Shown: positions 2,746 through 61,874, counted from the stretch's first letter. The stretch: 61,874 bases of DNA from Catajapyx aquilonaris (GCA_000934665.2 KZ538561.1:1-61874); one strand, 5' to 3'. Numbers and translations: made by a program. Notes: generated by a model not told the origin, from the letters alone.

Positions 2746-3209
2746 TCACAAGTACTCGACGATATCACACTTGATGGAGATATTGGGACAGGAAGCGATG
2801 GAGAAATGTGAGCTGTCCGACACGTTATGGTTCTTGTGCCTCTCTCGAAGCAGTTTCTGGAAGATGGGCAGGATGGCCATGTCCAGGTCAGTCTCGGAGG
2901 TGGCCACTCCCGCCCCGGGTCCGCTCCCGGGTCCGCCCCTGGGATGGCCCCTCCCGCCCACGCCGCCTCGTCCGGCAGCCACGTCCGGGGTGCTCTGAAC
3001 CAGCCCCGGGGCGGGACTGCCCAGGGGCCTGGGCCTGCCCGCCGCGGACAACCGGACGCTCTGGCTCTGCCTCGGGGGCGGACCCCCGCAGTCTACCCCG
3101 GGGCCAACACTGTCCGACACTCTCACCCGGGGCCGACCCCGCTCCGACCCCGCCCTTGCCTTACTGGACGGTGCCTCCGATGACGCCGACGACGGCGCCC
3201 CCGACGGTT
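2746..3209 (-). CDS. GABA-B-R2: GABA-B-R2 last coding exon, ending ...[17 protein letters not shown]...[15 protein letters not shown]
   Basis: Strong acceptor CTCTCTTTTTTTCCAG|AA (phase 1), in frame with ORF 2746-3126; TGA stop at 2746-2748; C-terminal motif typical of arthropod GABA-B-R2. Confidence 0.92.
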
Positions 3210-42200: not shown

Positions 42201-45200
42201 TGCATATACTTTGAGCAGCTTGCTCAGCACTTTCTTCCACGATCTATGTTGGGGCTGGTTGGCTGGTTCGAGCAAGAAAATAAAATTCTCGGAGAGAGAC
42301 ACACCTCTAGCTCTAGTCTTGGTACAAGATGTATGTAGTTGTGTACTCACGCGTCCTGAGACTGTGATGTCATTGTTGGTGCTGAGAGGAAGCATGTCTG
42401 TGAGGATGGAGCCTTCCAGGGCAGTCTCCAGCTCCTGTGTGCTGCAGGGGGGCCTCGCAGTTTCTCCGACCTCAGACTCAGCCACGCTCTCTTTCCGCTT
42501 CCACCACTCGGACCGGTACATACCCATTATCAGCCACTGGTACTTGCGTCCGTACATGCCTAGAAGAAAACAAACATTAGGAGAAGGAGAAAAAATTAGT
42601 GCATAAAATTACAGCATTAAAAAGACTAACAAAAAATATTTTCCCAATTTAATTACAATAACTTAACTCTTGCAAGGCAGGTATATGTATATACTCCATC
42701 AAAACACGACGCATATTTACTTAGCATAAAGTAGCATATGCTCATTTCATGCCCCCATGCACATTACGGAACGGAGAGAATAAATTTTCCAGGTCTTGTT
42801 TACGTAAAACACTCCACCCCCCTCCGGATAATCCAAGACAACTCTACCGAGAGAGAATCTTTATACATCCGGCGTACACATTGCGTAAATCTGCATTGTA
42901 ATCTGCATAATAATTCCTCCAAAAATTATACACAAAAATTACATCCCAAACCTGAGCTAAAGTTCCACAATTAATTTATATACTAGAGGCAGTGGGTGTT
43001 GATTACTAGATTATTCCGCTACAATTAAATATTATGCTCAACAGGACTCCTGAATTGCTCAGCGTGCCTTTAAATTAGCCCTCGCACGATTTCAAATTAA
43101 TACACATTCTATTCATCCTGAGTGGCGGTTTAATAACTGTCCAACAATAGATCCAGTGCAGTGGGTAGCAGTGAATGGACTCGCAATTCTACAAAACCAG
43201 ATTAACCCAACGCAGCAAATGTGAATTGCCACAATTCACCCAACGTGATTCCGGCCAATTGACAGCAAATTGTTGCCAAACCCATTAATTAATTATTGCG
43301 CGCCTCTCTATTGTGCGCAGGGCTGCCATTCAGCTTGAGCGTCAACAGTTATTGCTTCCATTGTAAGGGGCGGCCATGCTTGATAAACAAGGCCTGATGA
43401 TACCAGCTTCCAATTTATTAGCGAACAACAACTTTTGACCTCCCAAATGGCCTGTACTTCACACACACACACACACACAAAAAGCATCACGATCGTTCGA
43501 TTTTTTTTTGGACTGTACATCACTGTACACCTGTCAATTCAACGTCGCATTAAAGCCATTAATTTAGAGATTAAATTGATGCCATATTTACTGCAGGATC
43601 GAGCAAACAAGGCTTAAGAGTGTCACTTGCATTGCCGGAGAGTTTTAAAGAAAAGGAAAGCGCGCGTTTACGACGTTGTAAACTTTTTTATCATAAGCAC
43701 TCCCTGTTATGACCGTATAAAATGCAATTTGGTCCCAGATATTGCGATGAACGTAAAAAAAATTATTTCGCATTCACTCTTTCCTCCGTTAATTTTTCTG
43801 TCCTCAAAAAAAAGCTTTCATCTGCAGACAGTCTGCAGAAGTACACTGCATTCAACATGTACAACTTTCTAACTGTACGTATCAACTCTCTCTGTGTCTG
43901 TCTTTTTTGATTTCCAGCCCGCTGGCTTCCCTGGCAAAATCAGCTGTTGAAAGTACAGAATTTCACTGTAATTCTCTCATGACAATGAAGGTCCTTTGTA
44001 GCAGATAATATAAGCAAAATGCACCACAACTGAATCCCATCCATTACATGCTCCGTAAGTAAACGCAAAATTTAGTTGCTCCCGGGGAAAAAAAATACTT
44101 CCAGGTAAATATTTTTCCAAGAGGTTTTTCCCATAGCTTCGCAAACAAAGTCAGCTACAGGCTATTGTCTGAAAACTTTGCCGTACTTGTAAGTGGGCTC
44201 CTAAAATCTGAATTGAGTACACAAAAGCTAGTCATGAATTCAAACGCTCCCTTTTATTCCGCCTGGCAACCCCAGTCAAAAATCAGGCTAATATGACATA
44301 GTAAAATCTTTCGAAAAATACAAAAGCACAATTAATGTTACAGTACCGATCTGTTCATATTCGTACTGACGTCAGATTGAACTTTCTGAAAATTATTATC
44401 CTGCTTTGAAGTAAAGCCACTTATTATTATTTTTTGACAAATGTAATGTCAACACTGCGGGTCTAAGGGCCTGTTGCGGGCATCAAATCAAGTAAAACAT
44501 GTTTTATTTATCGTATACGTAATCGGAGGTTTTTTTTAGCTTGATTTTCGCTCGCACAGCAGGTCCTGAGAGTGCACTAGGCGGAGTGAAATCCCGCGTT
44601 TATAGAATCGGGGATTGGATATGAAAGTTGTTAAAGTCAAAGTGGCACTCCCCACACTTAAAGTAGACGAACAGGCTCAGGAAGTGTAAATCCAAGCCAA
44701 ATTTTCGACCAGACGTCACAAAATATATTTCTCCCCCCGACTTTTGGCGACTGGGACATCACACACACAGAGAGAGATTTTTCGGAGGAGGAGGAGGAGA
44801 AGAAAACGGTGGAAGCCAAAAAAGCAAATGTAATCGAGTGGAGTCTGTTAAGCAGAAAGTTGGTAGTTGTAAACCTTTCCCAGCAGGCAGGAGGCTGCAT
44901 TTGCATTTGATTTGTGGAACGTTCTCGGGATGCAAATCGATGCCCATTCGTCAAAGGCGAGGCCGGAGTTGAAGGCTTCCAAGAAGAAGAAGAAGAAGCA
45001 GCCTCTTTCCGAGCAAGCACTTACATCGACTGTGGCCTCCGCCAATCAGCGTAAGGGATGCAAACCAACCCCCCCAAAAAACCAAACACAAACTCTATCT
45101 CACCTTCCCTGTAGGCCTCGCAGAATATCCTTCTGGCCCATGTCTCGTTGAAGTTGCCCAGAATGATCCGGACGTCCTTTTCCTTCAGCTTGGCCAGTTG

Positions 45201-48200
45201 GTTGTCCAGCTCGTCCGCAAAACTCTGCGCCTGCGCAACCTCCACCCCTTCCGTATCTAGTGCTGCCACCAGGTGGTTGTGGGCCTGAAACAATGAACGT
45301 ATTTTTTAAAATTTATTTACCAGAGTGAACCACTTGTCAAAAACTTGACAACACTGCCCTGCTTCCCGACTGTGGAGTGCATAGATGACTCACCGCGGAC
45401 AGAGTCACAGATTCAAGCAAATTTAGACAACCACGACAGGGAGCATATACTACATAAGAGGCGCAAACTTCTGTCGGCGCCTTTGATGTTCGCGTCGCTC
45501 TGTTTGAGGCCGTTGCCAAGGCTGGCGGCCATCTTGAAGTGTGGGGAACGCCAACGAGGTATAAATAGGGTACAGGCAAAAATAGGGTCCGCCATCTTTG
45601 ATGGTTTTGGCGGCCATGGCAACTACACGGCAAGAACACGCGCAAATCAAAGATGGCAGACCCTATCTTTGCCTGTACTCTATTTATACCTCGTTGGCGT
45701 TCCCCACACTTCAAGATGGCCGCCAGCCTTGGCAACGGCCTCAAACAGAGAGACGCGGAAATCGAATGTTTGCGCCTCTTATGTAGTATAACATGCTCCC
45801 TGACCACGAGATTTAAAAAAAAATTAAGATTGGAAGGTATAATGTTACAACTCAAAATGTGGCAGTGTATATATGTATACGTATATTGTGTTTTTTTCCG
45901 GTGTGGTCCTTTTTCTCTCGGATGTTTATATGATGAAATTTGTGGCTCCTTCCTGTCCGAGGCAAATTGACTTATCTTTCCACCGTCACCTAACACCAGG
46001 CCCCATCGAAACCAACACCATTTTTTAAACGCAGATTATAATTCAATATCCGCGTTATTAGAGCTGCACTTAAAGCAATGGCTGGCTTCAAAATATAATT
46101 ACATTCATGCGTGACGCAAGTCAGTGATCTGATTAATTAACTGATTTACACCATTTCCTCTATCAGTAATGTAATCAACTAATGTTTTGCAATTATATAG
46201 GGCTGGGAGGGAGTATGGGGGGGGGGACGAGGATTGGCAAACCACGGGAATATTACACATATTTATGCAATCATTGGCTGGGTGGGGTATGGGGGTAAGC
46301 TGGCCAGGGTTTTGCAACCGGCTGGATGGAAACAGGTTGCAAATAATTGGAATATTTTGGCGAAGAAGAGCCAAGTACTCAAACCAAATGTTAATTTGAC
46401 AAATATGGTATAGGACGGCAATGAAATCGATGGCTGGCTAAATATTTAGTTGATTTTGCACTCTTTTGCACACAATGCACTCGGTTTGTTTGAGCGGCAA
46501 CTCTCATTACAAATAGCACCGTGGATGTGTGCAAAGTTAGGCCTGAATGAATACTTTAATTCAATATATTCTAATATTTTGGGTTATATCTAAAACGAAA
46601 AAAATGCTGATACGAACACCAGAGTTAAATGAATGGGCTAAGCTACGGGTTAAATTAATCCGCAAGTTTATGATAATATTACGTAATAACAGCTCATGGT
46701 TTTTAATTAGAGTCACGACTCGATTTTCGTTACTTCCACTACTGCACTGAAAATTTGAAACACTCAAAAAATACTGTATAAACACATGCGCGCAAACCAG
46801 TCACTGTACAGTGTGTACACCTGGAATGTGTAATTATTCACCATTTGGTAATAATTTCAAGCACATGGCACACGATTTATTTATTCACCTGACCACAGTG
46901 GATATCAGCATATTTGCACCTTGTTGGTACAATCGGTGCATTTGTGAGTATGAGTGATAATTACTCATTTTAGTCTGAAATGAAGGACGTTATGCAAAGT
47001 GGCGAATGGAAAGTTAGTAATTAAAAATTTCCTGCCAATTTGGGATATACACATGATGAATTAATGTGATTTCGTATTCAGTTACGTATAAATAGATTCG
47101 TACCATCGTTACAATCCATACCCTATTGCAAATCACTGAAACGTTTAAAATTAGTTACCCACAAGTAAATACGCATTTGTGGGCATTGTGGGCATGCATA
47201 ACATTATTTATGAGTGTCTATTATTTGCCGGACGACTGCATGCACACACATCGAATAATAATGAGTGAATATATTTTTTTCATTGTACTGAATAAAATAG
47301 TTTGGTTTACTTATTTGAAATTTTATGCGCCTGTTACATATTACCGGTATATGTCTCTTTTATAGATTTTGTTTCCAGCGTTTGATTCCAGCCAGATCAG
47401 TGCTTCTAGTGCTTATTTGGCATCGCAATGGAACCAATCAGCAGAGATTTCTTCAAGTCCGGTATATAGACCCCCTTCTCCTTCCTGCTTCCGACTGTCT
47501 TTGCCACACTTTGCACAACACCAGAAACCTCTCTCGTGTGCCAGCCATCCTCCCCCGGACAAATAAACAATCCAAACACCGCAGCCTCTCTTTCTTCAGG
47601 AGAAGAGAGAAAGAGAAGGGAAAAAAGAGGAAAGAAGAAGGAAAGCAGATCGCTTGCATCAAAGCCCACCCTTCGAGAGAGAAAAAAAAAACCCGAAATA
47701 ATACCCCCAAGACATCCATTTCACTCTGGAGTGGTGGATACACCTATTTGTTCTATGCCAATCCTGTACAGTATTGCTCAGCCTCACAGTATTAAAAAAG
47801 GAGACCTATGCTATTGAGCCGTCAGCAGGGACCATCTCGATAATAGAGGTATGTATAGGCCTATCTGACGTATACATTTGTGCGCCGATAATTGACAGTC
47901 GATAAGAAAAGAAAGCCGGGCAGTAGTGTCCTGAAATAATGAGTTTACTGAACCTATTACTAGACACTAATCAAGGATCCATAAAAGAACTGCTTCAAAT
48001 TTTTTTTAAATGAACAAAAATGCAGCTGTTTTATTATTTGTTTACTGGCTTTTGTTAGGCGACCATCATCAGAGGAGTTATCTAAATAATGGATTAACCG
48101 ACAGTTACAGGATGGTTGTTGGAACAGGTCCGAGGAATCCAATTTGACGCGACCTTTAACGGCCGGTTAATAATTCAGTCGTGTGCTTTCACTGCGGACA

Positions 48201-50279
48201 TTTGACCTCGCTCATGACCTTTGCCCTCTAGCAACCGGCTAATGGACGTCATCCGGAGTCTTTTATGCTGCAATTATCTGCCGGTTAATTTAATTGCGAG
48301 CTCATTGTGCCCCAGGTACACACAGCAGGGGGGCAGCAGTTAAGAAATTTTAATGCTTCCTTTTGTACAGTCTACGTATGAAACGCAACAATGCACGTAA
48401 CGTCGCAGCGGGTTGAGCTCCATAAATTACGTAACGCCCCTTTTTTGCCCTTTAAATGGAAGTTAATTCCATGCAGCCGCCAATAGGACGACAGGGCATG
48501 TCGGAAGTTAATTATCATCATTAACCAGAACAGTTTGTTTAGAATCAACATCACATCGACACGCAAACCTACACGTGTACATTGCCCTATACAGGACGCC
48601 ATGAGAGGAATAGTTTAATTCCAAACTTCAGGATTATATAAAACTCATTAATCTGAATTATCTCTGGTTATGTAGACACGGTAGAGGAAGGTAAGGTGAA
48701 TATTGTACTGCATAAATTTCGTTTTCCTCGCTCTAATTGGGTTGCTGCTGGATGTTCCTTGCTGCAGGAGAAACAGAACATTCCGCGGCGCAACATAGAT
48801 TAAGCAGATAAATCCTACTTTTCCCGAGTCACACTTTATTTTGGTTGCCAAAAAGTTGCGAAAAGTTTGATCGGATCAGCCCAACCCCAGCAAAGAAACC
48901 TTCGTCATCATTATTTGCGGACCTAAAATTAAGTCCAGAATCGCCCTACTACTTCAAAGTGACAAAACTTTTCATATTTGTTGGAAACAGCTGTACTTAA
49001 ACCCGGCTAACTGCATAAGAAATGGGCCTGGATAAATATTCAGTCAAGTGAGACGCGAAAGTGTCTCACGGTGTGGGATCTTCTAAAAAGAACATTAAAA
49101 GAAGGTCAGAAGTATCATTGATACGAAAAAAGAAGAAGATCCATTTGGTCCCCCTTTTCCGCTTCCAAAATTATGATTGGCGGAGCTGTGTGGGGGATTT
49201 CGATTCCTGCTCCGCCCAATGAATCCTCTTTCTGTCCTTTTAGCCGCCTGATAGAATTCGAGAGACACGAAAAGGGGAGAACTTTGGGCTCCTTCCGACG
49301 CCAATCCGACGCCTCAGAAAACCACGGAAGATCTAAGCTCTCTCTCACTCAGCCCAACTCGGCAGGATTAGACGCCAATTATTAAACAACAAGGCGTATC
49401 CATTACTATGGAAAACTTGCACAGAATTTAACTATACGCTGTCACATGAACTTACGCACTGCAGTCATATGTTGCCTAATAACGAAACCGATTAAACCTT
49501 CCAGGCACTCTACATTATGTAAGGCGCGCATGTATATTTCATGACTCCGCAGCGTGTTTTAATACATAATAAGACTAATATCATTGTAAGAGTGCAGCAG
49601 CAGCAATGCCCGCAGCCTGCTCCATTAAAGCAGCAGTCAAGTTACATCAGAATATATTATGTGGGCACATGTTGGATCACGAGTGGAGCAAACTTGTATG
49701 ATGTATATTACATTTTATGCAGGCACCTTACCGAGATAATAAGATAAAAAACCATGCTGTGGCATCACCATTCTTTACATAACTTATATGCGTTACTGTG
49801 ATCTCATTACAGGTGTAGCGGAAGGCGATGGAAGCTGCGTTTGTGACACCTCATGTGGCTTTAACTTATGAAAAAAAGATTATTGTCGCAATGGTACTGA
49901 CCAAGGCGTATCTGGGCTCGTTCTGGTACAGGGTCCCTACTCTGGTCCAGTTGAACTTCTGCAGCAGCTGGACCCTGGGTGGGTTGAACTCATTCTCGCT
50001 GGGTACTATCCGGAAGAAGTTTGGGAAGTGCTTCTGGGTGAACATCGGGTGGGTGTCGGCGTACGACAGCTGCAATAAGAGGGGGACAAAACACGGGTAA
50101 TTCTTCATTGTCCAACAATATAGAGCTATAGAGAGACTGACCTGAGCAATATGCCAGTGCTTGGAGGCCTTGGCGATTGGGTCTGTGACCAATGTGCAGG
50201 CGCCGCCGAAGAGCATGACCTTCTTGGGAGGCTGGTGGACCACGTCGAAGAAGGCCTTCATCCCAACAGCAGCGTTGCA
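2746..50279 (-). CDS. GABA-B-R2: Metabotropic GABA-B receptor subunit 2 (class C GPCR); 5'-partial, 17 coding exons in window
   Basis: Joined exons 50142-50279, 49902-50069, 45104-45284, 42351-42559, 28560-28799, 28433-28493, 23858-24092, 22184-22424, 19974-20096, 13273-13383, 12204-12428, 8833-9018, 7883-7988, 7042-7171, 3968-4563, 3288-3767, 2746-3209 total 3894 nt in one open frame with GT-AG introns. Diagnostic motifs: [82 protein letters not shown], and the arthropod R2 C-terminus CDIVEYL. The signal peptide/first exon was not found. Confidence 0.96.
3288..3767 (-). CDS. GABA-B-R2: GABA-B-R2 Ser/Thr/Pro-rich tail exon ([10 protein letters not shown]...poly-D...poly-T...HAHMPS)
   Basis: Acceptor TCGAACACAG|GC, donor TCAG|GTCAGA; 480 nt, phase 1/1; lies within ORF 3253-3792. 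Confidence 0.78.
3968..4563 (-). CDS. GABA-B-R2: GABA-B-R2 acidic low-complexity tail exon ([21 protein letters not shown]...[15 protein letters not shown]...PLLSLM); probably a cassette exon
   Basis: 596 nt, GC-rich, open frame (ORF 3963-4508 extended upstream). Phase-2 acceptor AAAAAAAAG|G is atypical (no pyrimidine tract); phase-1 donor ATGG|GTTAGT. Phases fit the neighbouring exons. Confidence 0.7.
4775..4925 (+). repeat. Dispersed repeat family B, copy 1
   Basis: TTTTCCCGTTCAACAAT..GGTCAGAGA.GGTGGGAC..CTTTGTCCGCGC.GTGACTCATCACCAACGT.CATG..TACTACT, shared with 52918-53045. Confidence 0.7.
7042..7171 (-). CDS. GABA-B-R2: GABA-B-R2 tail exon: [32 protein letters not shown]...TPSQR (alternative donor gives exon end 7037)
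   Basis: Acceptor TTGTTGCAG|CT (phase 1). The TETTD.SSLCSL motif resembles insect R2 tails as I recall them. Two donors 5 nt apart: AG|GTACAG and CA|GTAAGA. Confidence 0.83.
7883..7988 (-). CDS. GABA-B-R2: GABA-B-R2 tail exon: [35 protein letters not shown]
   Basis: Acceptor TTGGCAG|ATC, donor GAAG|GTACTG; 106 nt, phase 0/1. Confidence 0.85.
8833..9018 (-). CDS. GABA-B-R2: GABA-B-R2 exon (proximal tail and coiled coil): [23 protein letters not shown]...[14 protein letters not shown]
   Basis: Acceptor TTTTTGCAG|ATG, donor GAG|GTCAGG; 186 nt, phase 0/0; heptad-like segment consistent with the R1/R2 dimerisation coiled coil. Confidence 0.9.
11646..11925 (-). mobile_element. MITE family A copy (retains a CAGGGTGATTCA end plus TA)
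   Basis: Reverse-oriented core (GATGTTTGTCCGAC...GATAGT...GTGGCAGGAGTGTGCA...CCATCTAT...TTTTGGC...TTCACTAGT) shared with copies at ~16.2, 36.4 and 55.1 kb. Confidence 0.7.
12204..12428 (-). CDS. GABA-B-R2: GABA-B-R2 exon (TM5-TM7): [32 protein letters not shown]...TLILVFVPK
   Basis: Acceptor TTTTCATCAG|ATT, donor AAG|GTAAGA; 225 nt, phase 0/0. Confidence 0.96.
13273..13383 (-). CDS. GABA-B-R2: GABA-B-R2 exon (ECL2-TM5): [37 protein letters not shown]
   Basis: Acceptor TTTGCCAG|ACT, donor ATG|GTAAGT; 111 nt, phase 0/0. Confidence 0.95.
16186..16531 (+). mobile_element. MITE family A copy with an internal 187-bp palindrome (16229-16415)
   Basis: Same core as the other family A copies; ends in TGAATCACCCTG; core duplicated head-to-head around ~16322. 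Confidence 0.75.
17569..17634. repeat. 66-bp dispersed element with TATCCTGA/TCAGGATA ends (copy 1)
   Basis: Homologous 66-bp copy at 36301-36366 (TATCCTGAAATGCAGGCTT...CAAGAAAG...CAGTCAGGATA). Confidence 0.65.
17668..17785. repeat. Perfect inverted repeat: 58-bp arms, 2-nt spacer
   Basis: 17668-17725 is the exact reverse complement of 17728-17785. Confidence 0.92.
19974..20096 (-). CDS. GABA-B-R2: GABA-B-R2 exon (TM4): [41 protein letters not shown]
   Basis: Acceptor TTTCAG|GTG, donor TAT|GTGAGT; 123 nt, phase 0/0. Confidence 0.95.
22184..22424 (-). CDS. GABA-B-R2: GABA-B-R2 exon (TM2-TM3): [21 protein letters not shown]...[17 protein letters not shown]
   Basis: Acceptor TTTCAG|G, donor AAG|GTAAAG; 241 nt, phase 2/0. 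Confidence 0.96.
23858..24092 (-). CDS. GABA-B-R2: GABA-B-R2 exon (end of VFT, stalk, TM1): [10 protein letters not shown]...PPKDRSL...[15 protein letters not shown]
   Basis: Acceptor CGACACAG|GT, donor CAGAG|GTCAGT; 235 nt, phase 1/2. Confidence 0.94.
24989..25060 (-). mobile_element. Probable 3' tail remnant of a non-LTR retrotransposon (L2/CR1-like) or its SINE
   Basis: Minus strand reads a short stem-loop (CTCTA/TAGAG), then AATAAATA, then (TGAT)n; no RT ORF visible. Confidence 0.4.
26528..27139. repeat. Minisatellite, ~80-bp unit, ~7.7 copies
   Basis: Unit AACTGGTGACCCCGAAGTGAGCGTTGATGCAGCTTACAGCCATTCAGGCCTTGACTAGGCCCCAGAATGAGCCAATCATG; units start at 26528, 26608, 26688 and so on; the 7th copy is truncated. 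Confidence 0.93.
28433..28493 (-). CDS. GABA-B-R2: GABA-B-R2 small exon: [20 protein letters not shown]
   Basis: Acceptor CTTGTAG|GGT, donor CAAG|GTAATG; 61 nt, phase 0/1; completes the conserved FEGVTGPVRF motif. Not in the supplied ORF track. Confidence 0.93.
28560..28799 (-). CDS. GABA-B-R2: GABA-B-R2 exon (VFT): [34 protein letters not shown]...[10 protein letters not shown]
   Basis: Acceptor TCTTTTTCCAG|ACT, donor ACC|GTGAGT; 240 nt, phase 0/0. Confidence 0.95.
33010..33121. mobile_element. ~108-bp foldback MITE, TA-flanked, CAGTTG termini
   Basis: TA|CAGTTGCCAGATGGATTTTT...AAAAATTCCACCTGACAACTG|TA, with further internal complementarity (ATTTGC/GCAAAT, TCTGG/CCAGA, GTCTA/TAGAC). Confidence 0.72.
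33635..33730. mobile_element. 96-bp MITE-like element with CAGGGTGGTCCA terminal inverted repeats
   Basis: 12-bp perfect TIR (CAGGGTGGTCCA / TGGACCACCCTG); TA on the right, GA on the left. Confidence 0.65.
36301..36366. repeat. 66-bp dispersed element with TATCCTGA/TCAGGATA ends (copy 2)
   Basis: Homologous to 17569-17634. Confidence 0.65.
36411..36624 (+). mobile_element. MITE family A degenerate copy
   Basis: TTGTCCGAC..GATAGTATCGCTATCTC..CCTGAAGGTGGCAG..GCGCCATCTATGC..TTTTGGCAAC..TTCACTAGT. Confidence 0.65.
41551..41909. mobile_element. ~359-bp foldback/MITE-like element
   Basis: Termini AGCCTCGAGGAA...TTCCTCGAGGCT; imperfect inverted arms across nearly the whole length; no clear TSD. 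Confidence 0.78.
42351..42559 (-). CDS. GABA-B-R2: GABA-B-R2 exon (VFT): [20 protein letters not shown]...[23 protein letters not shown]
   Basis: Acceptor TTTTCTTCTAG|GC, donor CGC|GTGAGT; 209 nt, phase 1/0. Confidence 0.95.
45104..45284 (-). CDS. GABA-B-R2: GABA-B-R2 exon (VFT): [10 protein letters not shown]...[27 protein letters not shown]
   Basis: Acceptor TTGTTTCAG|GCC, donor GAAG|GTGAGA; 181 nt, phase 0/1. Confidence 0.95.
45437..45802. mobile_element. 366-bp foldback/MITE with 7-bp target-site duplication (ACCACGA)
   Basis: Termini CAGGGAGCAT...ATGCTCCCTG; ~160-bp inverted arms with a ~43-bp spacer; ACCACGA direct repeat at 45430-45436 and 45803-45809. Confidence 0.88.
49902..50069 (-). 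CDS. GABA-B-R2: GABA-B-R2 exon (VFT): [56 protein letters not shown]
   Basis: Acceptor CTTATTGCAG|CTG, donor TTG|GTCAGT; 168 nt, phase 0/0. Confidence 0.95.
50142..50279 (-). CDS. GABA-B-R2: GABA-B-R2 exon (Venus-flytrap domain): [46 protein letters not shown]
   Basis: Acceptor TTTCTCAACAG|TGC, donor CAG|GTCAGT; 138 nt, phase 0/0. Confidence 0.95.
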
Positions 50280-51799
50280 CTGTTGAGAAAGAAATGGGAA
50301 AGAACTTATTAATTACTTGAAAAAGAAACTGGAGCAGTTTGAAATGCTGGTAACAACGTCTTCCACACCCCGTTAAAACGTTTCCTTTCCTTTTGTTGCG
50401 AAAAAGTCCCCTGACGTGACGAGGCGTAGCCAACATCGGTTCCAATTAGCCTCCGATACGTCGCGTCCGGGTTGGGCAAATCTGAGGCCATTGTGGGAGG
50501 ATGAGGGTTGGCATATTGTTCCCTGAGCAAGCGATAGACCCGAGTCCCCCATCCTTTATGAATGTATAATAAGGACCGTTAAAAGCTGATCCAAGAAAAT
50601 TTGAAAAGAATCGATTATCCATCCCCCCTCCCTCCCAGCGTTTGGGGCCTGCCTCATTTACCACCGCGGCACTAATTGATACCCTCATCATAGATTCCGT
50701 CTATTAAGGGATGTAATCCGCCGCGTGTGGTGGCCACGCTGCTGGACCACCCGGAACATCGGAGGCGACAAGGCGGACTAACACACTCATAAGCGACAAG
50801 TGACATTTAAAAAAAATATTGCAGAAATAATCAACCAAATCGCCACTAATTAATACAATTCTAAAATGTCCACATGTGACACCAAAATGTTAGCCCATTG
50901 CAAAGTCGTTTCCAGGCGTCTCCAAACTTCCGGACAACAACCAAATTAACAACTTTTTGGTCCTTTCGTCTTTCCGGGTTTCTCAACATTTCCTGTTTTT
51001 ACCCCCCCTCTTTTTTCTGTCCCCCCTCATTTCACTTCCTCCTTTCCCCCTCCATTTTCTTGGGGCTTTTTCTCGGGGGCTTGATCTGGATGGCGCGCGG
51101 CAGCATCGGAAATCAAATTATTGCGGTGGAAAGCAGACGACCCAGCTTTGAAAGTCACACTAACTCGATTACATTCAATCCTTTTCCTTCCTCTACCGAA
51201 GCCTTCAGATCCAGAAGCCCTCCGCAAAATTTCAGAAACCTATACCTTCCCCCTCCCCTTTTCTCCTTCCCATACTTCCAATCAATAACCCTTCAATCTA
51301 CCAAGTGATTGCGCAGACATATTTGGGCAGTGAGTGGGCAAAATCCAGAGTCCTGCAGAAATTTTTTAACAGCAAAGTGCAAATTCGAGGATTTTTTTAT
51401 CGACAATTTTATGAGTTAGACCTTGTGGTTGGATAGCACGAGTCGACGTGCAAGTCTGACTTGACCCCGTCCGTAGTAAAAGGTCACGGGTCTGGACAAA
51501 CTTTCCCCGCGTGTTTTATGGCCCACCCCGTAATTTAGGTGGCTCCTGCACGGGAACAGATAGGTTGGACCCAAGCCAGATGCCCAATTTCGCAAACTTT
51601 TTGGGGCCATTTCTGACGCACATGGCAAACCGTCCTGATCGATAAAAAATATTTTTTTTTTGGAGAAAGTTATATAGGGGGGAGGCCTTTTTTTCTCCTT
51701 CTGGCCCCCCTCTCAATTTGACAGTTACTGATCACATTCCGATGAGGCGTGTTTGACCCCCCTTTGGGAGTGAAAAAAAAGGTGGGAGGTGAAGGAAGT

Positions 51800-51939
51800 C
51801 AAGATTGGCCTATAGGTTAGTCAGGCCAGCACGTGTGATAGATGATCTCTGCACCTCTTAGGACTCTGTCTGTCCCGGATCGGAAACCAGGTCACAACCT
51901 AAGGTCACCGCCTGCTTCTCACTCTGACTGCACAGAAAG
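51800..51939 (+). promoter_or_regulatory. Putative promoter / non-coding first exon of the nested gene
   Basis: Reverse CCAAT (ATTGG ~51804), Inr-like TTAGTC (~51817), E-box CACGTG (51830-51835), AGGTCA half-sites at 51889 and 51902 (a third at 51966 in the intron). Motif-level evidence only. Confidence 0.35.
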
Positions 51940-52007
51940 GTAAGTGCTGGCAGAGCTAACCCTATAGGTCATGTTGGGTCAAATGATGGTACTAATGTTC
52001 TTGTCAG
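51940..52007 (+). other. 68-nt 5'-UTR intron of the nested gene
   Basis: AAG|GTAAGT donor, TACTAAT branch-like motif (51990-51996), TTCTTGTCAG|ATG acceptor. An in-frame TGA (51925-51927) in the upstream exon indicates that exon is non-coding. Confidence 0.75.
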
Positions 52008-52373
52008 ATGCCGTACGCCGTACTGACCCGTCGTTGGCGTCCTGACCTTGGTCCCCATCAGTACCAGTATGTGATCGAAGGAGTGACCGAGTCCGAGTCC
52101 GAGATGTTGGCCCTCCTGCTGTCCCCAAACGCCCAGATAGTGTTCCACAACCTGTTGCGTCTGGAGGTCCTGGCCTCTCCAAACATCGTGTGTCCCACAC
52201 TCGTCCTCAACCATCTAGAGAAAATGGGGTACCGTCTCTACTCGTCCTCGGCAGGACTGGAAGAGTGCGTCGGAAGCTACTCCAACTACTGGACACTCTG
52301 GAAGCCCGAACCGGTGGTCAACCAAATGCCTTCATTCCACTCAAACAGTGGAAACGGATCGAACATGTACTAA
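52008..52373 (+). CDS. Small nested antisense gene, 121 aa, GFRP-like / KCTD C-terminal (H1-like) fold protein
   Basis: Compact ORF with coding-like GC-rich third positions. Starts MPY like GFRP; P.LVLN.LEK.GYR...S.G...W.L.K matches the GFRP pattern P.IVL.KLE..GFR...TG...W.L.K. Preceded by a canonical intron ending at the ATG and followed by ATTAAA at 52465-52470. Confidence 0.8.
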   Translation: MPYAVLTRRWRPDLGPHQYQYVIEGVTESESEMLALLLSPNAQIVFHNLLRLEVLASPNIVCPTLVLNHLEKMGYRLYSSSAGLEECVGSYSNYWTLWKPEPVVNQMPSFHSNSGNGSNMY

Positions 52374-52917
52374 CACTGACCAATTTTATGCATTTTACAA
52401 ATTGTACTGTAGCAGGATTTGACTAAATACACTATAAAAGTACGACCAAATTTCTGTTCAACATATTAAAATGACACCTAAGCATCAACACTACCAGCTT
52501 ACAGATAAGACCTTGAGGTAATGTCGACGGGATGGAAACAGGTGGTCCAGATCAATAAGAGATTATTATCGGCATTTACTTGACTAAACCAGCAGCAGCT
52601 GACTCGGCCACTTTTCCTTTCCATCCCCTTATATACTATATAAAAAAAGAGGAAGCTGCTGACTGGCTGCTGGAAGTTGGCCCATCTCATCAGATGAAGA
52701 GGGGGGGGGGGGGGGGGGNGGGAGGTTATCGGGACTGACTTAATGGAATGGGACTTCACTCCTTATCTTGGCTCGAGCTCGCCTGACAACCACACTCGCG
52801 GCAACAGGGTGCTTCCTTAATTATCATTACGAAACACCTTGTATACGCTTTTCGTGGTTTTTCACACTTCCTTCACATTGACAACATTAGCACATAATAA
52901 TGGGAAGGCCAGTCAAC

Positions 52918-53045
52918 TAGGTTTCCACTTTTTCCCGTTCAACAATTAGAGGACATAGAGGTCAGAGAAGGTGGGACACGTAGCACGCTGGTGGACTTTG
53001 TCCGCGCGGTGACTCATCACCAACGTACATGTCTTACTACTTTCC
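52918..53045 (+). repeat. Dispersed repeat family B, copy 2
   Basis: Collinear similarity to 4775-4925. Confidence 0.7.
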
Positions 53046-54717
53046 CTCAGCAGCTGATTAGTCAATACCCGCCTGCCTTTCCACCATGAGTAGGCTACAC
53101 AAAGTGTGTATAGCATAACGAAATGAGCCTCATCTATTGGAGTCATAATCACCAGAGGCGGCTGAGAGACTCGGTGAAGCGACGAACACAGATCATTATA
53201 CCCTCCCGAGATGGAAGGGGAAAAAAATGGGAGTCCCATAGAGTCAGTATCATCCGGATCCACCCATGCGTACAGGGTGCTCCGGGGAATGCAGTACAGC
53301 AAACCACACGTTTAGGTTTGCACAGGTGTGAAAGAAGGCGGACTGGGAAATGAGAGAGAGAGAGACCTGCTGGGGGGGATGAGAGGGTAGGGGGGGAGGG
53401 GGGATCGATCCCTGGCGCGCATGGTAACCGCAGGATGCCTCAGCCATCGACCACTTTTGGCCCCACAACCTCCACAAGCCCACACGCAACGCACCCAACG
53501 CAAAAGCACGCACCCACACCACCCTCCGGGGATCCGCAGGGGAATAATCATTGCTAATCAACACGCATTATTCATCCGCGGGCTATTAACCGGTGTTATA
53601 GAGCCAGGCCTTGCGCACGGTTGGCTCCACTGCTGGGCTGTGCCTCTGTTTGTCCGCGGTGAGTCATCAGCGCCCACTGCTCCGCCAATGAGAATTGTGG
53701 GTACAGTGCGGTCCATTAAAAATGCTCTTTTGAAACCCCCTACCTTGTATGACTTAACCGGAAAGATCGCAATATTTATAGGACATGCCCCTTTTTTTGA
53801 GAAGGGAGTACTGTAAGTAATTCATTTTAATGTATATCCCTCGACTGAACTTATCCTGCACTGGCTGGTAACACGTGTTAATAGTGCGATTGCTGAATAA
53901 AATGCAGATTAATGCCACACTTATTCCGACCTGATTGTACTGTTCAGTATCATGTACACACACTCTCCGTCCGGGGAGCTTTTTAATTAGGCAAATTGGA
54001 GTGTCCACTCAGAGTTTTTTTTGTAGGAGCGGATTAGTTCTTGCTGGACACGCCATATCTGAGCAGGGTACACTCCCGGATTATAACCACTGTTATAATT
54101 CTATCTTTGTGTCCGTAATATCCCATCTGACCTCTTTTCTAACTGGCCTTTGCACGCTCCACGAAGTTAATGGTAACGTGTGTGTGTAGTTGGTTTTGCG
54201 ACGCGTGAAAGGGGAGGAAGGAAGGATTTTAATTAGAGTTCGGGCTTCCCGATGGGGCTATGGGAAGGATATAGTTTTTGTTCACAAAAAATAATTAAAG
54301 GTAGATTCTAAATTCAGCATCACTTCCAACAAATCCGGTAGAATCTGTGGGTAATCCCTGATGCACACACCTTCCTCTCTTAATTACCATCCCTATAGGT
54401 CTGACATTTTAACCTCCTTGTCTACTATAGTGTTGCTTCCCAACCTGAATGAAACCCATTTTAATCCGGCCCCAAAGTTTTCACTCAGGCCAGGTCAAAC
54501 AAACCACCAAAAATAATCTTCCCTTTACTCCTTGAAAGTGATCCCAGCTCGAGCGATGTAATCTAGGAAGACGATGCCTGGAGTGTAGTTGTACGTTAGG
54601 TGAGGAGACGCTCGTTGAATGGCGCTGGTAAATGGGGCATGTAGGCAGCTGGCGTCTTTAATTTCCAAGCCAACCCAAAAGGGGAAGGAAGGAAGGAAGG
54701 AAAAGGGGGGGGGGGGG

Positions 54718-54846
54718 NNNNNNNNNNNNNNNNNNNNNNNNNNNNNNNNNNNNNNNNNNNNNNNNNNNNNNNNNNNNNNNNNNNNNNNNNNNNNNNNNNN
54801 NNNNNNNNNNNNNNNNNNNNNNNNNNNNNNNNNNNNNNNNNNNNNN
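54718..54846. other. Assembly gap (129 N)
   Basis: N run flanked by a G homopolymer on the left and a C homopolymer on the right. Confidence 0.99.
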
Positions 54847-55140
54847 CCCCCCCCCCCCCCCAACTTGTCATCCATTCAACCTCCCCCCAACCAAACACAA
54901 CAAAGAAAAAAAGAGAGCTCCCAACCCTATTGGGGGCTGCAGTGGGACGCACCGTTCACTCAATGTCCCAGCAAGCCCTATTGGACCACTCATTCTCATT
55001 AGGAGCCAGCAGTATCAGCGACCAGTTCGGCCATGGTTCAATCGCAATTCTGGAGGTCCAACGTTTGTTAACTTATTGCCGACTCCAGAGGTCGATTTAT
55101 ATAGCTAACAATGTCCCCAGCTAATATGACTCAATATAAT

Positions 55141-55358
55141 GCTTATTCTCTCCGTCGGATGTTTGTCCGACCTGATAGTATCGCTATCTCTCGCACGAAC
55201 TGATGGTGGCGGGAGTGTGCAGAGGGAGTATGCGCCATCTATGCCTGAAGAATAATATTACGTGTTAAAACGCTGCGCCAATTGTTTAGACACTGTCGTA
55301 CTGATTATATCTTATCCTAATTCAGGTTTTGCCAAATTTGGACAACGGATTCGCTAGT
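55141..55358 (+). mobile_element. MITE family A degenerate copy
   Basis: GCTTATTCTCTCCGTCGGATGTTTGTCCGACCTGATAGTATCGCTATCTC..GGAGTGTGCAG..GCGCCATCTATGC..TTTTGCCAAATTTGG..TTCGCTAGT. Confidence 0.68.
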
Positions 55359-56857
55359 TCATAATTAATAGCCTACCATATTCGACCTATAGGACCAGGT
55401 TTGTCCATTGGGAGGAGATCAGTTTGAATATCTCCAAAACCTTAAAACAGAAGCGTTGGATCGCACCCCTCCCCACCGTTCATTAGTTTCTAATTACACG
55501 TGATTGCCAGCCATGAACGGATGGAGCTGTCGGCTAACAAAGACTTATTACTACACCACCACCCCCGAAAATTTTTGCCTTCCCCGCTTCGGGGTCCCCG
55601 CAACTTCTCCCATGGTATAATTTATTCATCGACCAGATATTCGTTCGGGAAATCCAATTTGGACTCCTACCCGCCACCTGTAAATGTCCTTCCAGGCAGC
55701 ACAAGGGATGAGGGGGGGGGGGGGGGCTTAAAACCAAAATATAGCCCGCCAACACAGAAGCCTGCCCCAAAATTACACAGCTATACACACGACAAACATA
55801 CGAAAAGTGTTAAGAGCGACAATCAACATTGCTCATGTACAGTTTATGGTCTTTCTGGCAGATTAAACTATTCAGCTGTGTACACCTTTGTTTCCGTCAC
55901 TTTCCATGACTTATTCCTGAATAATTCGCACACTTTGGCTAATACGACATATGGCTCCGAAGCCCTGGGGAACAGTCGTGCTTCCGTCCCCCTTGACAGT
56001 AAAATGAGGGGAGCCTCTTGCTGCTGCTGTAACACGGTGAAAAGGGATTATTACGGTTGGAAAGAGATGGCCGGGAGCGTAATTCAGGTTCTCAGGTTCA
56101 GAAAACGCAAACAAGGCTTCATCATCTGGATCATTACTCAGGGGCTCCAGCCATTACGAAGGGGGAAGGCCTCCTTTAGCCAGCGGAGTAATCAGAGACC
56201 AAGACCAAACATATAAAGGAGACGTTTCAATTAGGGTAGCATTTCCAAGCCAGGATTGAAAATGGACGCGACCCACTGACCCCTTTTCCTTGCGTCAAAT
56301 TCTAAGAGAGAGAAAAAAAAATTCGTATGTATTGCTTCAACACGACATGCTCCTATTGCAAGGAACAGACATCAAAATCTTGATCAATCCGAGCGCTATA
56401 CCAAGCATTCACGACTGTTAGGAGGGTTGCCTGACACCCAGAATTAACATTTCTCTATCTGTCGAATCATCATCATCATCACCACCATCACGACATTTCC
56501 CTATAAGGGGTAGTCAGCGATGACGAATCAATTTGGAAATAACCGAATCGGCAAAATTTTTGCGAAGATTCCCAACTCTCTCATTCCACTAAAATGATGG
56601 TTCAGAAAAGATCAATGATTTCCATTCAACTGCCATCCACTCACTCACATATGGACGACCCAACGCATTTGGAAAGTAAATGGGGCCCACCCACATTATT
56701 TAACAAAGCTTTTGATTCCAAAAAAAAGTGACAGCTTATGACCGTGCAAACAATGGACCGTGACTGCAACCCGACACGGTTGGCCTCGGGGAGCTGTGTT
56801 CCGGTTGCAATGCGATATCTATGGACACAAACGTCATGGAGGCCAGTCATTTCCAAA

Positions 56858-56899
56858 NNNNNNNNNNNNNNNNNNNNNNNNNNNNNNNNNNNNNNNNNN
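56858..56899. other. Assembly gap (42 N)
   Basis: N run followed by a G homopolymer. Confidence 0.99.
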
Positions 56900-59300
56900 G
56901 GGGGGGGAAAGAGACCAGAAATTGATCTGGACATCTCTATTTTTTTTTTTGTAGGCTTCCGATAAAATTCAACGCCAATACCGGGGTGGGTCTGTCGTCT
57001 ATATACCTTCAGGTTCAAGTGAGTGGTATTCATGGGCCAAGTTTGCTCTTGAACTAACTTGGCTCGGTCTGAGTGAAAAGGGGGCCAACGCAAAAGTGAA
57101 TCCGGGCCTGGGTGTAACACACCGCACACTTGTTGCACTCGCATTCATCTGTGCCGGGAAAGTGCAGCAAGTCATGTGAATACAAGTTTATCCCTGCAAA
57201 CACATTTGGACATGAACAGTAATGGAAATATGTGCGGGATATTTTTGTGCACTAATTTCCCAAATCCCATGGCTATTAGAACCCCATTGTTGGACCTCAT
57301 AAGCACCTCCGTCAGCTTTAGGAGTAACTTGGGCGTGCCTTGTAGTGTTGTGGGTTGGCCAGAAATGCAATACGGGCTGGAATTTAATTATGCTCTCGGA
57401 AGAGTGATGCCGGAACACACACACACATCCGATGATCCAGGATTGCCTTTATAGTCGGTGTCGCCGGTTATTAGAAGGTGCCATAGTTGCGTCTATCGGC
57501 GGCACTGAAATGAGGTGCGAGACGGCTCCCCAGCCATGCATGCGTAACATGATTGGCGGTCCTTGCATCCTCTGCTTGCTTGTACAATTCATTTTCCCCG
57601 GGATGCTCCGATATATAAAAAGCAATTGATCTTTTTTTTTTAGGGTGGGGGGGTTTTGCGGGCACAAAAGGGCCGCCTCATAAACTTCCATCTCCATGGG
57701 ATTATGGAAGTCATTAAAACTTTTGGGCCCGCTGACGCCATTGAGATGCTGCCTTTGTGCCCCAATTTGGGAGGCTGGAGGCTGCTGCTGGGGCTGGGTT
57801 CAAGCTTTAATTTGTAGCAGCTCAACGGAGAGGACGCGATTTTATTACGCCGAATGACTGGACCAAAAGGCAGAAAATCGCGGCGTAGATTAAAGCTTTT
57901 GTTGCCTTCCACCCCCCCCCTTTTCCCTATACTCCTGTCCAGTGTCGCCTGTTTATGGCCCGAACACAGCACACACACAAAAAAACACAAACAAACGATG
58001 CCGCCCACTGCCGAGATTACTGGCCCATGAATGTTGCCCGGGGACCAACCCACCCAACCCTCTCAAAATTATCGCCGGAAATTTTGCACCCACAAATCAT
58101 TCCTGGTGACCCGCTTAAACACTGCTCTCAAAATCCCCTTACGTCCAATATTCTGCTGGGCCGCAAAATTTCGGAAATAAAACCAAGAGAACTCGAGGGA
58201 CACAAACTTGGCCAAATGGGACCGCAACCACGGTTTTCGCACGCTATGACCGCATTTTTTTTGCGAGGAGATTTAATGTGTGTCAGCAAACGTCAAACTA
58301 AATGCCCGTAAATTTCGACTGACATGGTTGCCAAGTGGCGTGATCAGCTTTTTTGCAAAAATAAGAATGTTCGCGTGTGGAGGACCACTTCTGCGCCAAT
58401 AATTGGTTGCACAAACATGTCAATTAAATTTCGCTAAATTGAACCCAGTTGTGTTGATGTTTGCTTGTTCAATTAAAAAAAACACTGCTCTGGTATCAAG
58501 TGCGTAACAATATTTACATTCTGCGGCGTAAAAACACTGTCAATTATTCAGAAATATTATGTAATCTCCTCCACATCAAAACTATACTTGCTGAAGCATA
58601 TGCTAACATACACATTGCAGCTATATAGCTCCGGGTAACTTTTGTTCAAAACAGTTGTTGAAACATGCAGTAAGTATAGCTTCTGTAAGCAGAAATTTCA
58701 ATTGTGTTGAAGTTCGACCGAAATCATTATTGCTTCAGTTGGCCGTCTATATCAGAATATATTATAGTCACGTAAGAGGGCATTCAACTACATTAAAATT
58801 CAGCTGAGATCCATTTAAATTGAAGTCTTGGTAAATGTTGCGTTACAGAAAATAATTTTGCAATTCTTCTCATATAACCATGGGAAAGTTTTGAATAATA
58901 TTCTTCAGTGCACCATCATTGAAATCATCAATATTTCTAGCTGCAAAATGTTATAATTCTGCCAACATCACGGCAAACAACAGGTCAGTTGGAGCCTCGA
59001 TAAACTTCATGATTTCAATTAATCCGACAGCGTTGATGGGACGATAACCACTGCAAAGTAATAACAGAGGTTAAGTTGTCCTCACCTGACACATATTGTT
59101 GCAAATATGCCTATCCCTGGGCGTAATAACCACAATAGCTAATTCACTTTGGGTTGCACAATGCTGTGCAATGCAATTTAATGGCACAAATTAGTGCATA
59201 AATTTATTCGTATCCGAAAATGCGTACTGGCGGTTGACGAGTTGTGACACCAAAAAACGTTGTACAATAGTAGCTACTATGCATGTGCACTGTTAGCATG

Positions 59301-59378
59301 TACAGGGTGTTCCAGATTCGTGGGTAACTTTTTGATAAAGTCATCAAAAAGTGACCCACGAATCTGGAACACCCTGTA
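59301..59378. mobile_element. 74-bp hairpin MITE, TA-flanked (Tc1/mariner-superfamily-like ends)
   Basis: TA|CAGGGTGTTCCAGATTCGTGGG...CCCACGAATCTGGAACACCCTG|TA; 34-bp arms with 1 mismatch and a 6-nt loop. Confidence 0.85.
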
Positions 59379-61874
59379 TTTAATACCAGATCGAACCCAG
59401 GGCCTCATTCTATACAAGCTGAATAATTTTACCAGTACGATAGAGGGTATACACATTTCTTCATTATTTTCCTGTGAATTTGGGGCAGTGTACCCTGCCC
59501 TGCTCCGAAATATTCGCAAGAATTGGGGCAATCAAATGACTGTCCTTTTTCATGTTTATTTGTGATCCTATACAAGTTCCAAGTGTTGCACTCGGATCTC
59601 TCAAATAAAAATTTTTAAAAAATGGGTCGGAAGGGTTTGAAGGCACACAAAACTTCCACCCATCCGAGAGAACCCAATTTACGTACATCCTTCTCTCTCT
59701 TCTCCAGAGAAGTTGAAAAATCGGAGCCATTCCGAGCAGGACAAGGTTCGATCCGAGAAGCAGAACAAAAAAAAAGAGAGGGGCAGAATGAATATAAAAA
59801 AAAACTGTGCCAGGGTATTTTTAGGATCGTCGAAGTGGAGGATATCTATCTTTTTTTCGAGACAGAAGGAACCAGTTGATGGAGATGGTCTTCGCCCGAG
59901 TTAAACGCTGTCCTGTCTGGAAAGGAAAAGGAAAAAAGGAAACGACCTTTTTTCCCACTCTATATAACAGTGTAGGCCTCACATCCTCCTCGTTCCTTAA
60001 CTTGAATTCCTTCCTTCAAGTGCTCGCTCCTAATCCCATCAACGTCACGCTGCTAATCTCCAAAATCCAAGCCTTAATACTGTCGATCCAATCTGAGCCC
60101 CCTACTCCTTTTCCTCTCCCCCAAAACTAGGCTAAATTTCCCTTCTCCAGAGCATCCTCTCTCTCTATCATTTCCTAGTATATTGCATCCAATTTAGGAC
60201 TCAGGTATATTGCACGTAACAGCTGTTTTTCATCCTCCGTGTATACCTGGGCCAGGAAATTGAGCTAATTTATCAAAAGCCTGGCTTCAGCAAAATACTG
60301 CGCACAAAAGCTAGAACAACGCACGGAGATAAACTATGTGAAGCAGAAAAATAAACCGAACGAGATGTCATCGGATTATTGGGCTTATCAGAGAGAATAA
60401 TGACGGATTTGTTGCTCTGTGTGTTTCCAAATTCTTCAGTAAATGCATTTGCGTGTGATCCGTAAATTCAGCAGATATATCTTACATTGTTTGATTAATT
60501 AGCCCTGGGGTATGTAACTAATCTAAGTTGTTGACCTCAGTGTATATAAAAAAAATACTTGCAACAATTTCTCTGCCGAACCAAAAACAAGACGGGTTTT
60601 CAACAACAACGCGGCATGTTTTTCATTCCTATCTAATTGATCCCTAATCGATTGCTGCTGCTGAAGTACCGTCGGTATGCTTCTAATAACACGGCCCTGC
60701 AACTGTATATACAACAGAGCAGCAAGTTACATGACAAAAATTCCTATCTCCTGCCCTGACACGCATATGACTCGCCATAAATAACGCGTCATTTGCATTC
60801 GAAAATGTCTCGTCACGTACGTGTTATGAGTCCCATGCGGTCCACCCCACATTGCTATCCGTCCTATGCTCTTTTTTATTATTATTCTAATGTAATGGTC
60901 CGCTCGACAATGGACAACTTCATTCCACTCAGCTCCCTCACATCGGACTGTAATTGGTCGCATAGCACAGCATTTGATTCGCCTTGCAGCGAGGGGGGGG
61001 GGGGNGGGGGGGCATGCACAATTAAATTTTAACCAATTTGCAGCAGCCGGATGTACACTGAGCGATGCTTTCAATGAATTGCTGCTACCCGATGTCTCTT
61101 TCCTCCTGTTTTGATTATGGACATCAAAAATTCATCAGCGTTTTACTTGGAACGTGACTGTTTCTGGTACATTTTGCATCGCCCAAAGTGCATCCCCCCC
61201 GCCTCTCCTACTGCATACTGCAATGCGATTACAATTATTTATGCGGTTCCCGCTCAACCAATATGCTCCAAATATGCTCAAAACGTACCTCGCCTCTTCA
61301 AACGAAATGATTACCATTATGGCTTATACCTGACCTAAAAATGTTTTGGACAAACGGATCATCCAGCAAGGAAAAAAAAATGAATTTTTTTTTTGACACA
61401 CTATGAGGTATGTCAGGTATATTTGACGCGATTTGACATATGTGGTAACAGTGCGTATACGCATGGTGTATGTGCAGCAGTATACAGTAGTACGTACATG
61501 CTCTTATTTCTTGTTGCTACGGGATCGATTCATCAATTTGGGTCACAATGGAACAATGAAACTAAAAATAAACAACTAACTGGATCGCTACCCAGGTATG
61601 ATGACCGCAACTCAATGAAAAGCATCGCCAACATGAATATAGTATGAAAAGGAAAGTTTGTCCGTATGACCCATTTGGGCCCCTCTGCCACTCCAGCCCT
61701 TCCAGCAACAACGGGTTACCATACAGCAACGGGAAACTACTCAGCCATGTTAGGTCATACATGTCGTCACTGTCACGGACTTTTTTTTTTCTCTCCCACC
61801 AGCCATGAACCATGGGCCAAACTGCCAGTGACATGTACCATACACAGAGAGGGTTTGGCCAACTCCTGGACTCG

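Follow-up and report, generated by a model that had tools for sequence, protein, structure and literature searches.

A small spliced gene at the GABA-B-R2 locus

We analysed a 61,874-nucleotide stretch of Catajapyx aquilonaris DNA (GCA_000934665.2 KZ538561.1:1-61874), called the window below, which carries on its minus strand a gene for subunit 2 of the GABA-B receptor (GABA-B-R2) and on its plus strand a small gene with a 121-codon open reading frame (ORF). The product of the small gene, P0001, has as its nearest family by sequence GFRP, the feedback regulator of GTP cyclohydrolase I (GCH1). A preliminary description of the locus, drawn from the DNA alone, had modelled the small gene exon by exon and had proposed that its product modulates GABA-B receptors. 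The parts of the gene are listed here; X1 is a public sequencing run that matched the locus.

51810..51939, plus strand: exon 1, non-coding 5' untranslated region (UTR), with stops in all three frames; the X1 contig starts at 51810
51940..52007, plus strand: intron of 68 nt, GTAAGT...TACTAAT (51990-51996)...CAG, skipped by the X1 contig
52008..52373, plus strand: coding sequence (CDS), an ATG-to-TAA ORF of 121 codons plus TAA, encoding P0001
52374..52470, plus strand: 3' UTR, covered by the X1 contig to 52447 and drawn here to the end of the candidate ATTAAA at 52470
52426 (AATACA), 52433 (TATAAA) and 52465-52470 (ATTAAA), plus strand: candidate poly(A) signals, read from the sequence

X1 was the sole public run that matched the stretch, with 78% of sampled words present. 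One 570-nt contig of this run (word depth 54) corresponds to 51810-51937 joined to 52006-52447 with 0 mismatches. The 68 nt that it omits have GT..AG ends once the cut is moved by +2, which places the junction at 51939|52008, exactly where the preliminary description had drawn it. The 121-codon ORF and the 68-nt GT-AG intron with its TACTAAT motif, ending at the start codon (the last intron base, 52007, directly precedes the ATG), were likewise present in the sequence as described. These results confirm that the small plus-strand gene is real and has the spliced structure modelled for it. The comparison with X1 covered 49800-52690 (2.9 kb), and within this interval its cover consisted of the two exons only. 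Neither the flanks nor the intron nor the receptor exons at 49902-50279 were covered, which is uninformative on receptor expression. The run comprises 85,611 contigs (31.8 Mb), and no record states whether it is RNA or DNA. Judging by the cover of two exons only and by the number and size of the contigs, X1 looks like a transcriptome, which is not proof, and the contig could in principle derive from a processed DNA copy rather than from a transcript.

The real 5' end of exon 1 may lie upstream of 51810. In the spliced mRNA an in-frame stop stands 5 codons 5' of the ATG; therefore, the protein has no longer N-terminus in this transcript. At the 3' side, ATTAAA at 52465 begins 92 nt past the stop codon, in agreement with the roughly 90 nt given earlier. 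The X1 contig stops at 52447, past AATACA and TATAAA and short of ATTAAA, so that ATTAAA is a candidate signal with the other two as alternatives. Exon 1 also contains an upstream ATG at 51842, out of frame with the main ORF and in a weak context (T at -3). The upstream ORF that it opens has 38 codons (51842-51939 and 52008-52026, plus strand), spans the splice junction as well as the main start codon, and might reduce the translation of the 121-codon ORF.

When the 570-nt mRNA was shuffled 2000 times with dinucleotides preserved, an ORF of at least 121 codons, counted from ATG to stop, arose in only 11 cases. The G+C content (GC) at codon positions 1, 2 and 3 was 0.56, 0.39 and 0.70 in the small CDS, compared with 0.48, 0.38 and 0.77 in the receptor exons and with a GC of 0.47-0.50 in the flanking DNA. 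By this measure the small CDS looks like coding sequence, much as the receptor exons do. An antisense ORF at 51969-52214 (81 codons) was rejected as a coding frame, having no GC excess at the third position (0.67/0.40/0.57). Searching the whole window with P0001 by tblastn returned the self-match only. Pfam identified no family in 11 other ORFs in 50.8-61.9 kb, Rfam none in the whole window, and no tandem repeats were found in 50300-54000. A scan for bacterial-type promoters and terminators is not meaningful for this organism.

Predicted fold of P0001

AlphaFold2, run without an alignment, modelled the whole of P0001 with a predicted local distance difference test (pLDDT) of 67.6 and residues 1-102 with a pLDDT of 74.2 and a predicted template modelling score (pTM) of 0.66, the strands (b) and helices (a) following the order bbabbabb. 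Residues 1-100 form, in the model, a domain like those of GFRP and of the C-terminal domains (CTDs) of KCTD proteins, and residues 101-121 form a low-confidence tail. We compared the model of residues 1-102 with 350,542 PDB chains using Foldseek. Ranks 1-7 were all human or rat GFRP, with E values of 1.7e-3 to 2.6e-3, template modelling (TM) scores of 0.57-0.64 by target length and 20-22% identity. They were followed by trypanosome mt-SAF, KCTD1 (7.6e-3), Q4D6Q6 (9.8e-3) and the H1 domains of KCTD8 (1e-2), KCTD12 (4e-2) and KCTD16 (8e-2).

VIA-align, a structural aligner that does not lean on Foldseek, was run on 48,161 representative chains, only 14 of which reached Z 5. Here the order was Q4D6Q6 (Z 10.7), KCTD1 CTD (7.8), mt-SAF (7.5), KCTD16 H1 (6.7) and GFRP (6.5, 23% identity). 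GFRP chains matched the predicted domain end to end, with model residues 1..100 on chain residues 1..84 at Z 6.0-6.9, and their 20-25% identity was the highest of any row. The whole-protein model recovered the same fold families at lower Z. On these models, the assignment of P0001 to the GFRP/KCTD-CTD fold class made in the preliminary description was confirmed, and in predicted geometry GFRP ties with the KCTD C-terminal domains. Predicted self-assembly of four copies of residues 1-102 scored 0.24 (mark, 0.32), which is evidence for neither side.

Sequence relatives and domain architecture

GFRP (PF06399) was the sole Pfam family to match P0001 at E<=10; NCBIfam returned no family. Whole P0001 matched the profile with E 1.1e-3 (19.1 bits) over residues 62-99, on positions 51-82 of 83. 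Residues 1-100 gave E 7.6e-4 (19.7 bits) with a colinear match of residues 29-99 on positions 23-82, and residues 1-61 alone gave no Pfam match. The KCTD H1 model PF23110 was absent at E<=10, a negative that has to be read with the HMMER filters, which discard most matches above about E 0.1. The sole profile match, together with 20-25% identity in the structure alignments compared with 8-15% for the other families, makes GFRP the nearest family by sequence, as had been recognised by eye. Matches of phmmer in the PDB to galectin, an HNH endonuclease and QCR6 were rejected at E 0.56-1.7. Among metagenome loci, none of 75 pattern matches was confirmed.

P0001 had been described as a stand-alone protein lacking a BTB domain, and the searches bear this out. 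A stop stands upstream of the ATG, the ORF begins at the domain itself, no BTB was found upstream (to 126 of the 127 plus-strand ORFs of at least 55 residues in 20-52 kb, Pfam assigned neither BTB nor any other family) and the word-based search at longer lengths found no longer relatives. For these reasons we take P0001, as far as sequence can tell, to be a single-domain protein without BTB.

Comparison with known systems

Like GFRP, P0001 is a small stand-alone single-domain protein. The size differs: its structured part has about 100 residues and is followed by a tail of 21, compared with 83-86 residues in the solved GFRP chains. The GCH1 gene of the species does not lie in the window. In the accessible part of PMC7750480, GFRP is described as a pentamer that sits on the GCH1 decamer, with phenylalanine and tetrahydrobiopterin (BH4) as effectors; P0001 is known here from its sequence and a predicted monomer fold.

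The KCTD proteins share the fold. The CTD of KCTD1 (9foi, 6s4l) aligned at Z 5.9-7.8, and the H1 domains of KCTD8, KCTD12 and KCTD16 (6g57, 6qzl, 6m8s, 6qb7; PF23110) at Z 6.3-7.7, 5.2-6.8 and 5.7-6.8, respectively. P0001 differs from them in lacking a BTB/T1 domain and a PF23110 match, and its identity to them is 8-15%. According to the available text of PMC7618933, the KCTD1 CTD and GFRP have the same fold and pentameric assembly without discernible sequence similarity.

The best geometry of all was found in the kinetoplastid Q4D6Q6/Q586B2 family (6xyb, 6xyd), which aligned at Z 8.4-10.8 with 81-90 residues over model residues 1..100. Its members share the bbabbabb order and, at about 106 residues, are of comparable length; PMC10899635, in the portion available, describes the family as kinetoplastid-specific and as a tetramer. 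Identity to P0001 is 12-14% with no match at the sequence level, and there is no reason to infer a common function.

The host gene and the probable nested position

The receptor gene occupies the following positions.

2749..50279, minus strand: host gene, arthropod GABA-B receptor subunit 2, in 12-13 tblastn blocks; the window has no counterpart of the first 57-117 residues of the homologues
50279-50143 and 50069-49902, minus strand: two internal GABA-B-R2 coding exons, from tblastn with 10 arthropod GABA-B-R2 proteins and from the sequence
50280..61874, minus strand: probable receptor intron around the plus-strand small gene, 11.6 kb or more in length and still open where the window ends

A 76-residue transmembrane exon of the minus-strand gene matched 789 proteins at E<=0.001. 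Among the best 120 of these 789, the named proteins were mostly GABA-B receptor subunit 2; their sources were insects, chelicerates and crustaceans, and identity reached 88%. Ten full-length homologues aligned by tblastn in colinear blocks from 50297/50279 down to 2749. The most upstream receptor exon in the window starts at 50279 (minus strand) after ...aacag, in phase 0, and reads CNAAVGMK; it is internal, because an in-frame stop lies just upstream and there is no start codon. This agrees with the phase-0 internal exon of the preliminary description. The intron between the two most upstream exons (50070-50142, minus strand) has 73 nt and is very short beside its neighbours, which range from several kb to over 11 kb.

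An N-terminal part of 30 to 117 residues before the point that corresponds to 50279 is present in seven of the ten homologues; the remaining three begin no earlier than the first block. This part contains a signal peptide and a conserved stretch, and the homologues show here the region IAGFFP...GRGV...WNDT, expected in the first coding exon of the receptor. We built a hidden Markov model (HMM) of the N-terminal stretch from 49 homologues and, with all filters disabled, compared it with each stop-to-stop frame of the window. No match was significant: the lowest E was 4, at 18.8 kb, and on the minus strand in 50285-61874 it was 7.7. By tblastn, the N-terminal residues of the homologues had no match upstream of 50297, and the one match above this point (57757-57677, E 0.86) involved internal residues 290-327 of one homologue. 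Neither method, then, placed an N-terminal receptor exon between the small gene and the exon at 50279, where none had been seen before, nor anywhere up to 61874. With no such exon in 50285-61874, the N-terminal coding exon lies in an assembly gap or past the end of the window, 11.6 kb or more away. The long intron contains two N gaps, at 54718-54846 (129 N) and 56858-56899 (42 N), either of which could hide a short exon. The same intron has a hairpin-like inverted repeat at 59290-59336 and 59343-59389, with 47-nt arms that are 87% complementary and separated by 6 nt.

A distance of 1.5 kb separates the small gene from the internal receptor exon on the opposite strand, and none of the receptor exons overlaps it. 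On one side of the small gene the host exons begin at 50279; on the other side none was seen within the window. From the sequence, the small gene is thus likely nested antisense in a long GABA-B-R2 intron. The nesting put forward in the preliminary description was supported in this respect, and it stops short of proof because the window ends first. An alternative, non-homologous first receptor exon may lie between 50285 and 51800. Most simply, the position would be an ordinary nested-gene arrangement without functional meaning.

Interpretation

We favour, with moderate confidence, a reading in which the small gene encodes a very divergent arthropod protein of the GFRP family. By analogy with GFRP, the protein would assemble as a ring-shaped homo-oligomer, which would dock on the GCH1 decamer and adjust the synthesis of tetrahydrobiopterin according to small-molecule effectors. 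The antisense position in the long 5' intron of GABA-B-R2 would be incidental. The preliminary description had held P0001 to be too long and too divergent for a GFRP orthologue. This objection is weak, since the cluster named GFRP in the ESM Atlas, a resource of language-model neighbours, is commonest in Arthropoda, has a 102-residue representative and carries PF06399 on 46% of its members. As leads only, these figures suggest that arthropod proteins called GFRP have about 100 residues and that fewer than half of them match PF06399.

A number of results weigh against a GFRP-family assignment. At near or longer lengths, no relative of P0001 emerged from a word-based search of 5.8 billion clusters. 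A phmmer search of 1.84 billion representatives gave three matches only, to proteins of 646-4125 residues with 5-10 matched stretches each; we judged all three spurious, the two inspected (646 and 1205 residues) being repeat proteins. The PF06399 scores are below the curated gathering cut-off of 25 bits. Run against all PDB sequences with whole P0001, residues 1-100 or residues 60-100, phmmer found no GFRP at E<=10, which shows great divergence and is still compatible with remote homology. On the structural side, both models are alignment-free and were confident in only 2-3 of 5 per run. The fold scores are middling throughout, with a Foldseek E of about 2e-3 and a Z below 8 for GFRP, and by geometry alone Q4D6Q6 (Z 10.7-10.8), the KCTD1 CTD (7.6-7.8) and KCTD8 H1 (7.7) equal or exceed GFRP. 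Finally, the nearest ESM Atlas cluster is not the one named GFRP (0.86-0.88) but an unnamed arthropod cluster, 'Putative LOC100869493 [Apis florea]' (100 residues, 90 members), at 0.90-0.91. Atlas scores below 0.9 are a lead only, and the clusters come without alignment or E value.

P0001 may accordingly belong in a GFRP-like sister family, which is the main rival reading. In such a case the protein would belong to a separate uncharacterised arthropod family of about 100 residues, with the GFRP fold and a partner other than GCH1, represented by the LOC100869493 cluster. We regard this as possible and rather doubtful. The cluster resembles P0001 in size and phylum and was the nearest in both Atlas comparisons, sharing 205 of 256 features (0.90) and 212 of 256 (0.91). 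The sub-threshold GFRP profile match and the lack of pairwise similarity to solved GFRPs point the same way. PMC4423366, in its accessible part, gives a clear GFRP orthologue in C. elegans and reports GFRP absent from Drosophila, which means that not all arthropods have the GFRP system. However, the gap to the GFRP cluster is only 0.02-0.05, within scores that largely count as leads, and the LOC100869493 cluster may itself consist of divergent GFRP orthologues. It has no Pfam family in common with P0001, the likeness being by language-model features alone.

The preliminary description had advanced a different function, in which P0001 is a BTB-less, KCTD-H1-like pentamer that binds G-beta-gamma and modulates the host gene product, GABA-B-R2. 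Its grounds were the location inside GABA-B-R2 and the fold shared with the H1 domains, which extends to Z 5.2-7.7 across KCTD8, KCTD12 and KCTD16 and to Z 5.2-6.2 for 6m8s, an entry of KCTD12 H1 with G-beta-gamma. The available portions of PMC5508304 and PMC13361646 attribute desensitisation to the H1 domain acting through G-beta-gamma, and a 64-residue arthropod Atlas cluster at 0.85-0.88 carries PF23110 on 13% of its members. We nevertheless consider this function very improbable, and none of the results connects P0001 with GABA-B or G-beta-gamma signalling. P0001 itself does not match PF23110, and its identity to H1 domains is 8-12%, compared with 20-25% to GFRP. KCTD16 is tethered to the receptor by its BTB domain, which grips the GABA-B2 tail (PMC13361646, accessible text) and is absent from P0001. 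Nesting alone predicts no function. In the Atlas run that had the H1 cluster as best named match, only 2 of the 10 best named matches shared its family, and the match was rated 'probably wrong'. The proposal taken whole, with an invertebrate GFRP/KCTD-H1-fold modulator of GABA-B/G-beta-gamma co-regulated with its host or, more mildly, a second arthropod GFRP-like family that has moved from GCH1 control to another oligomeric target, seems to us to have very little chance of being correct.

That the locus yields a non-coding antisense RNA of the receptor, with ORF and fold likeness arising by chance, would fit a short gene that has an overlapping upstream ORF, no homologue by sequence and a matching run whose RNA status is not on record, but it is highly unlikely given the rarity of so long an ORF among the shuffles, the codon-position GC, the low odds that a chance ORF would match one Pfam family (E about 1e-3) and the same family by fold (GFRP in the Foldseek top 7), and the distance from the receptor exons.

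Other features of the window

An inverted repeat at 45482-45602 and 45646-45766 (121-nt arms, 94% complementary, 43 nt apart) lies in a receptor intron. This repeat, probably a small foldback or the remnant of a transposon, accounts for look-alike ORFs on both strands there. Between receptor tblastn blocks, a long open frame at 3253-3792 (minus strand) is rich in Asp runs and in Thr, Ser and Pro. Homologues align in that region only around 2749-2904 and 7005-7226, and the frame is apparently a stretch of low complexity, specific to the lineage, in the C-terminal tail of GABA-B-R2. Single N positions at 25319, 33247, 39265, 52719 and 61005 fall within long G or C homopolymer runs and mark assembly uncertainty.

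Significance

The control of tetrahydrobiopterin synthesis by GFRP is well studied in mammals. The literature that we searched, supplements aside, yielded nothing relevant on GFRP of arthropods or on genes nested within GABA-B-R2. If confirmed, P0001 would extend the GFRP/KCTD-CTD fold group by a stand-alone protein; a common origin of this group has already been raised in print (PMC7618933, in the part available). The nested position would matter only if it is conserved. An expressed, divergent arthropod GFRP-like gene would, if confirmed, help to map where the GFRP system has survived and diverged within the phylum.

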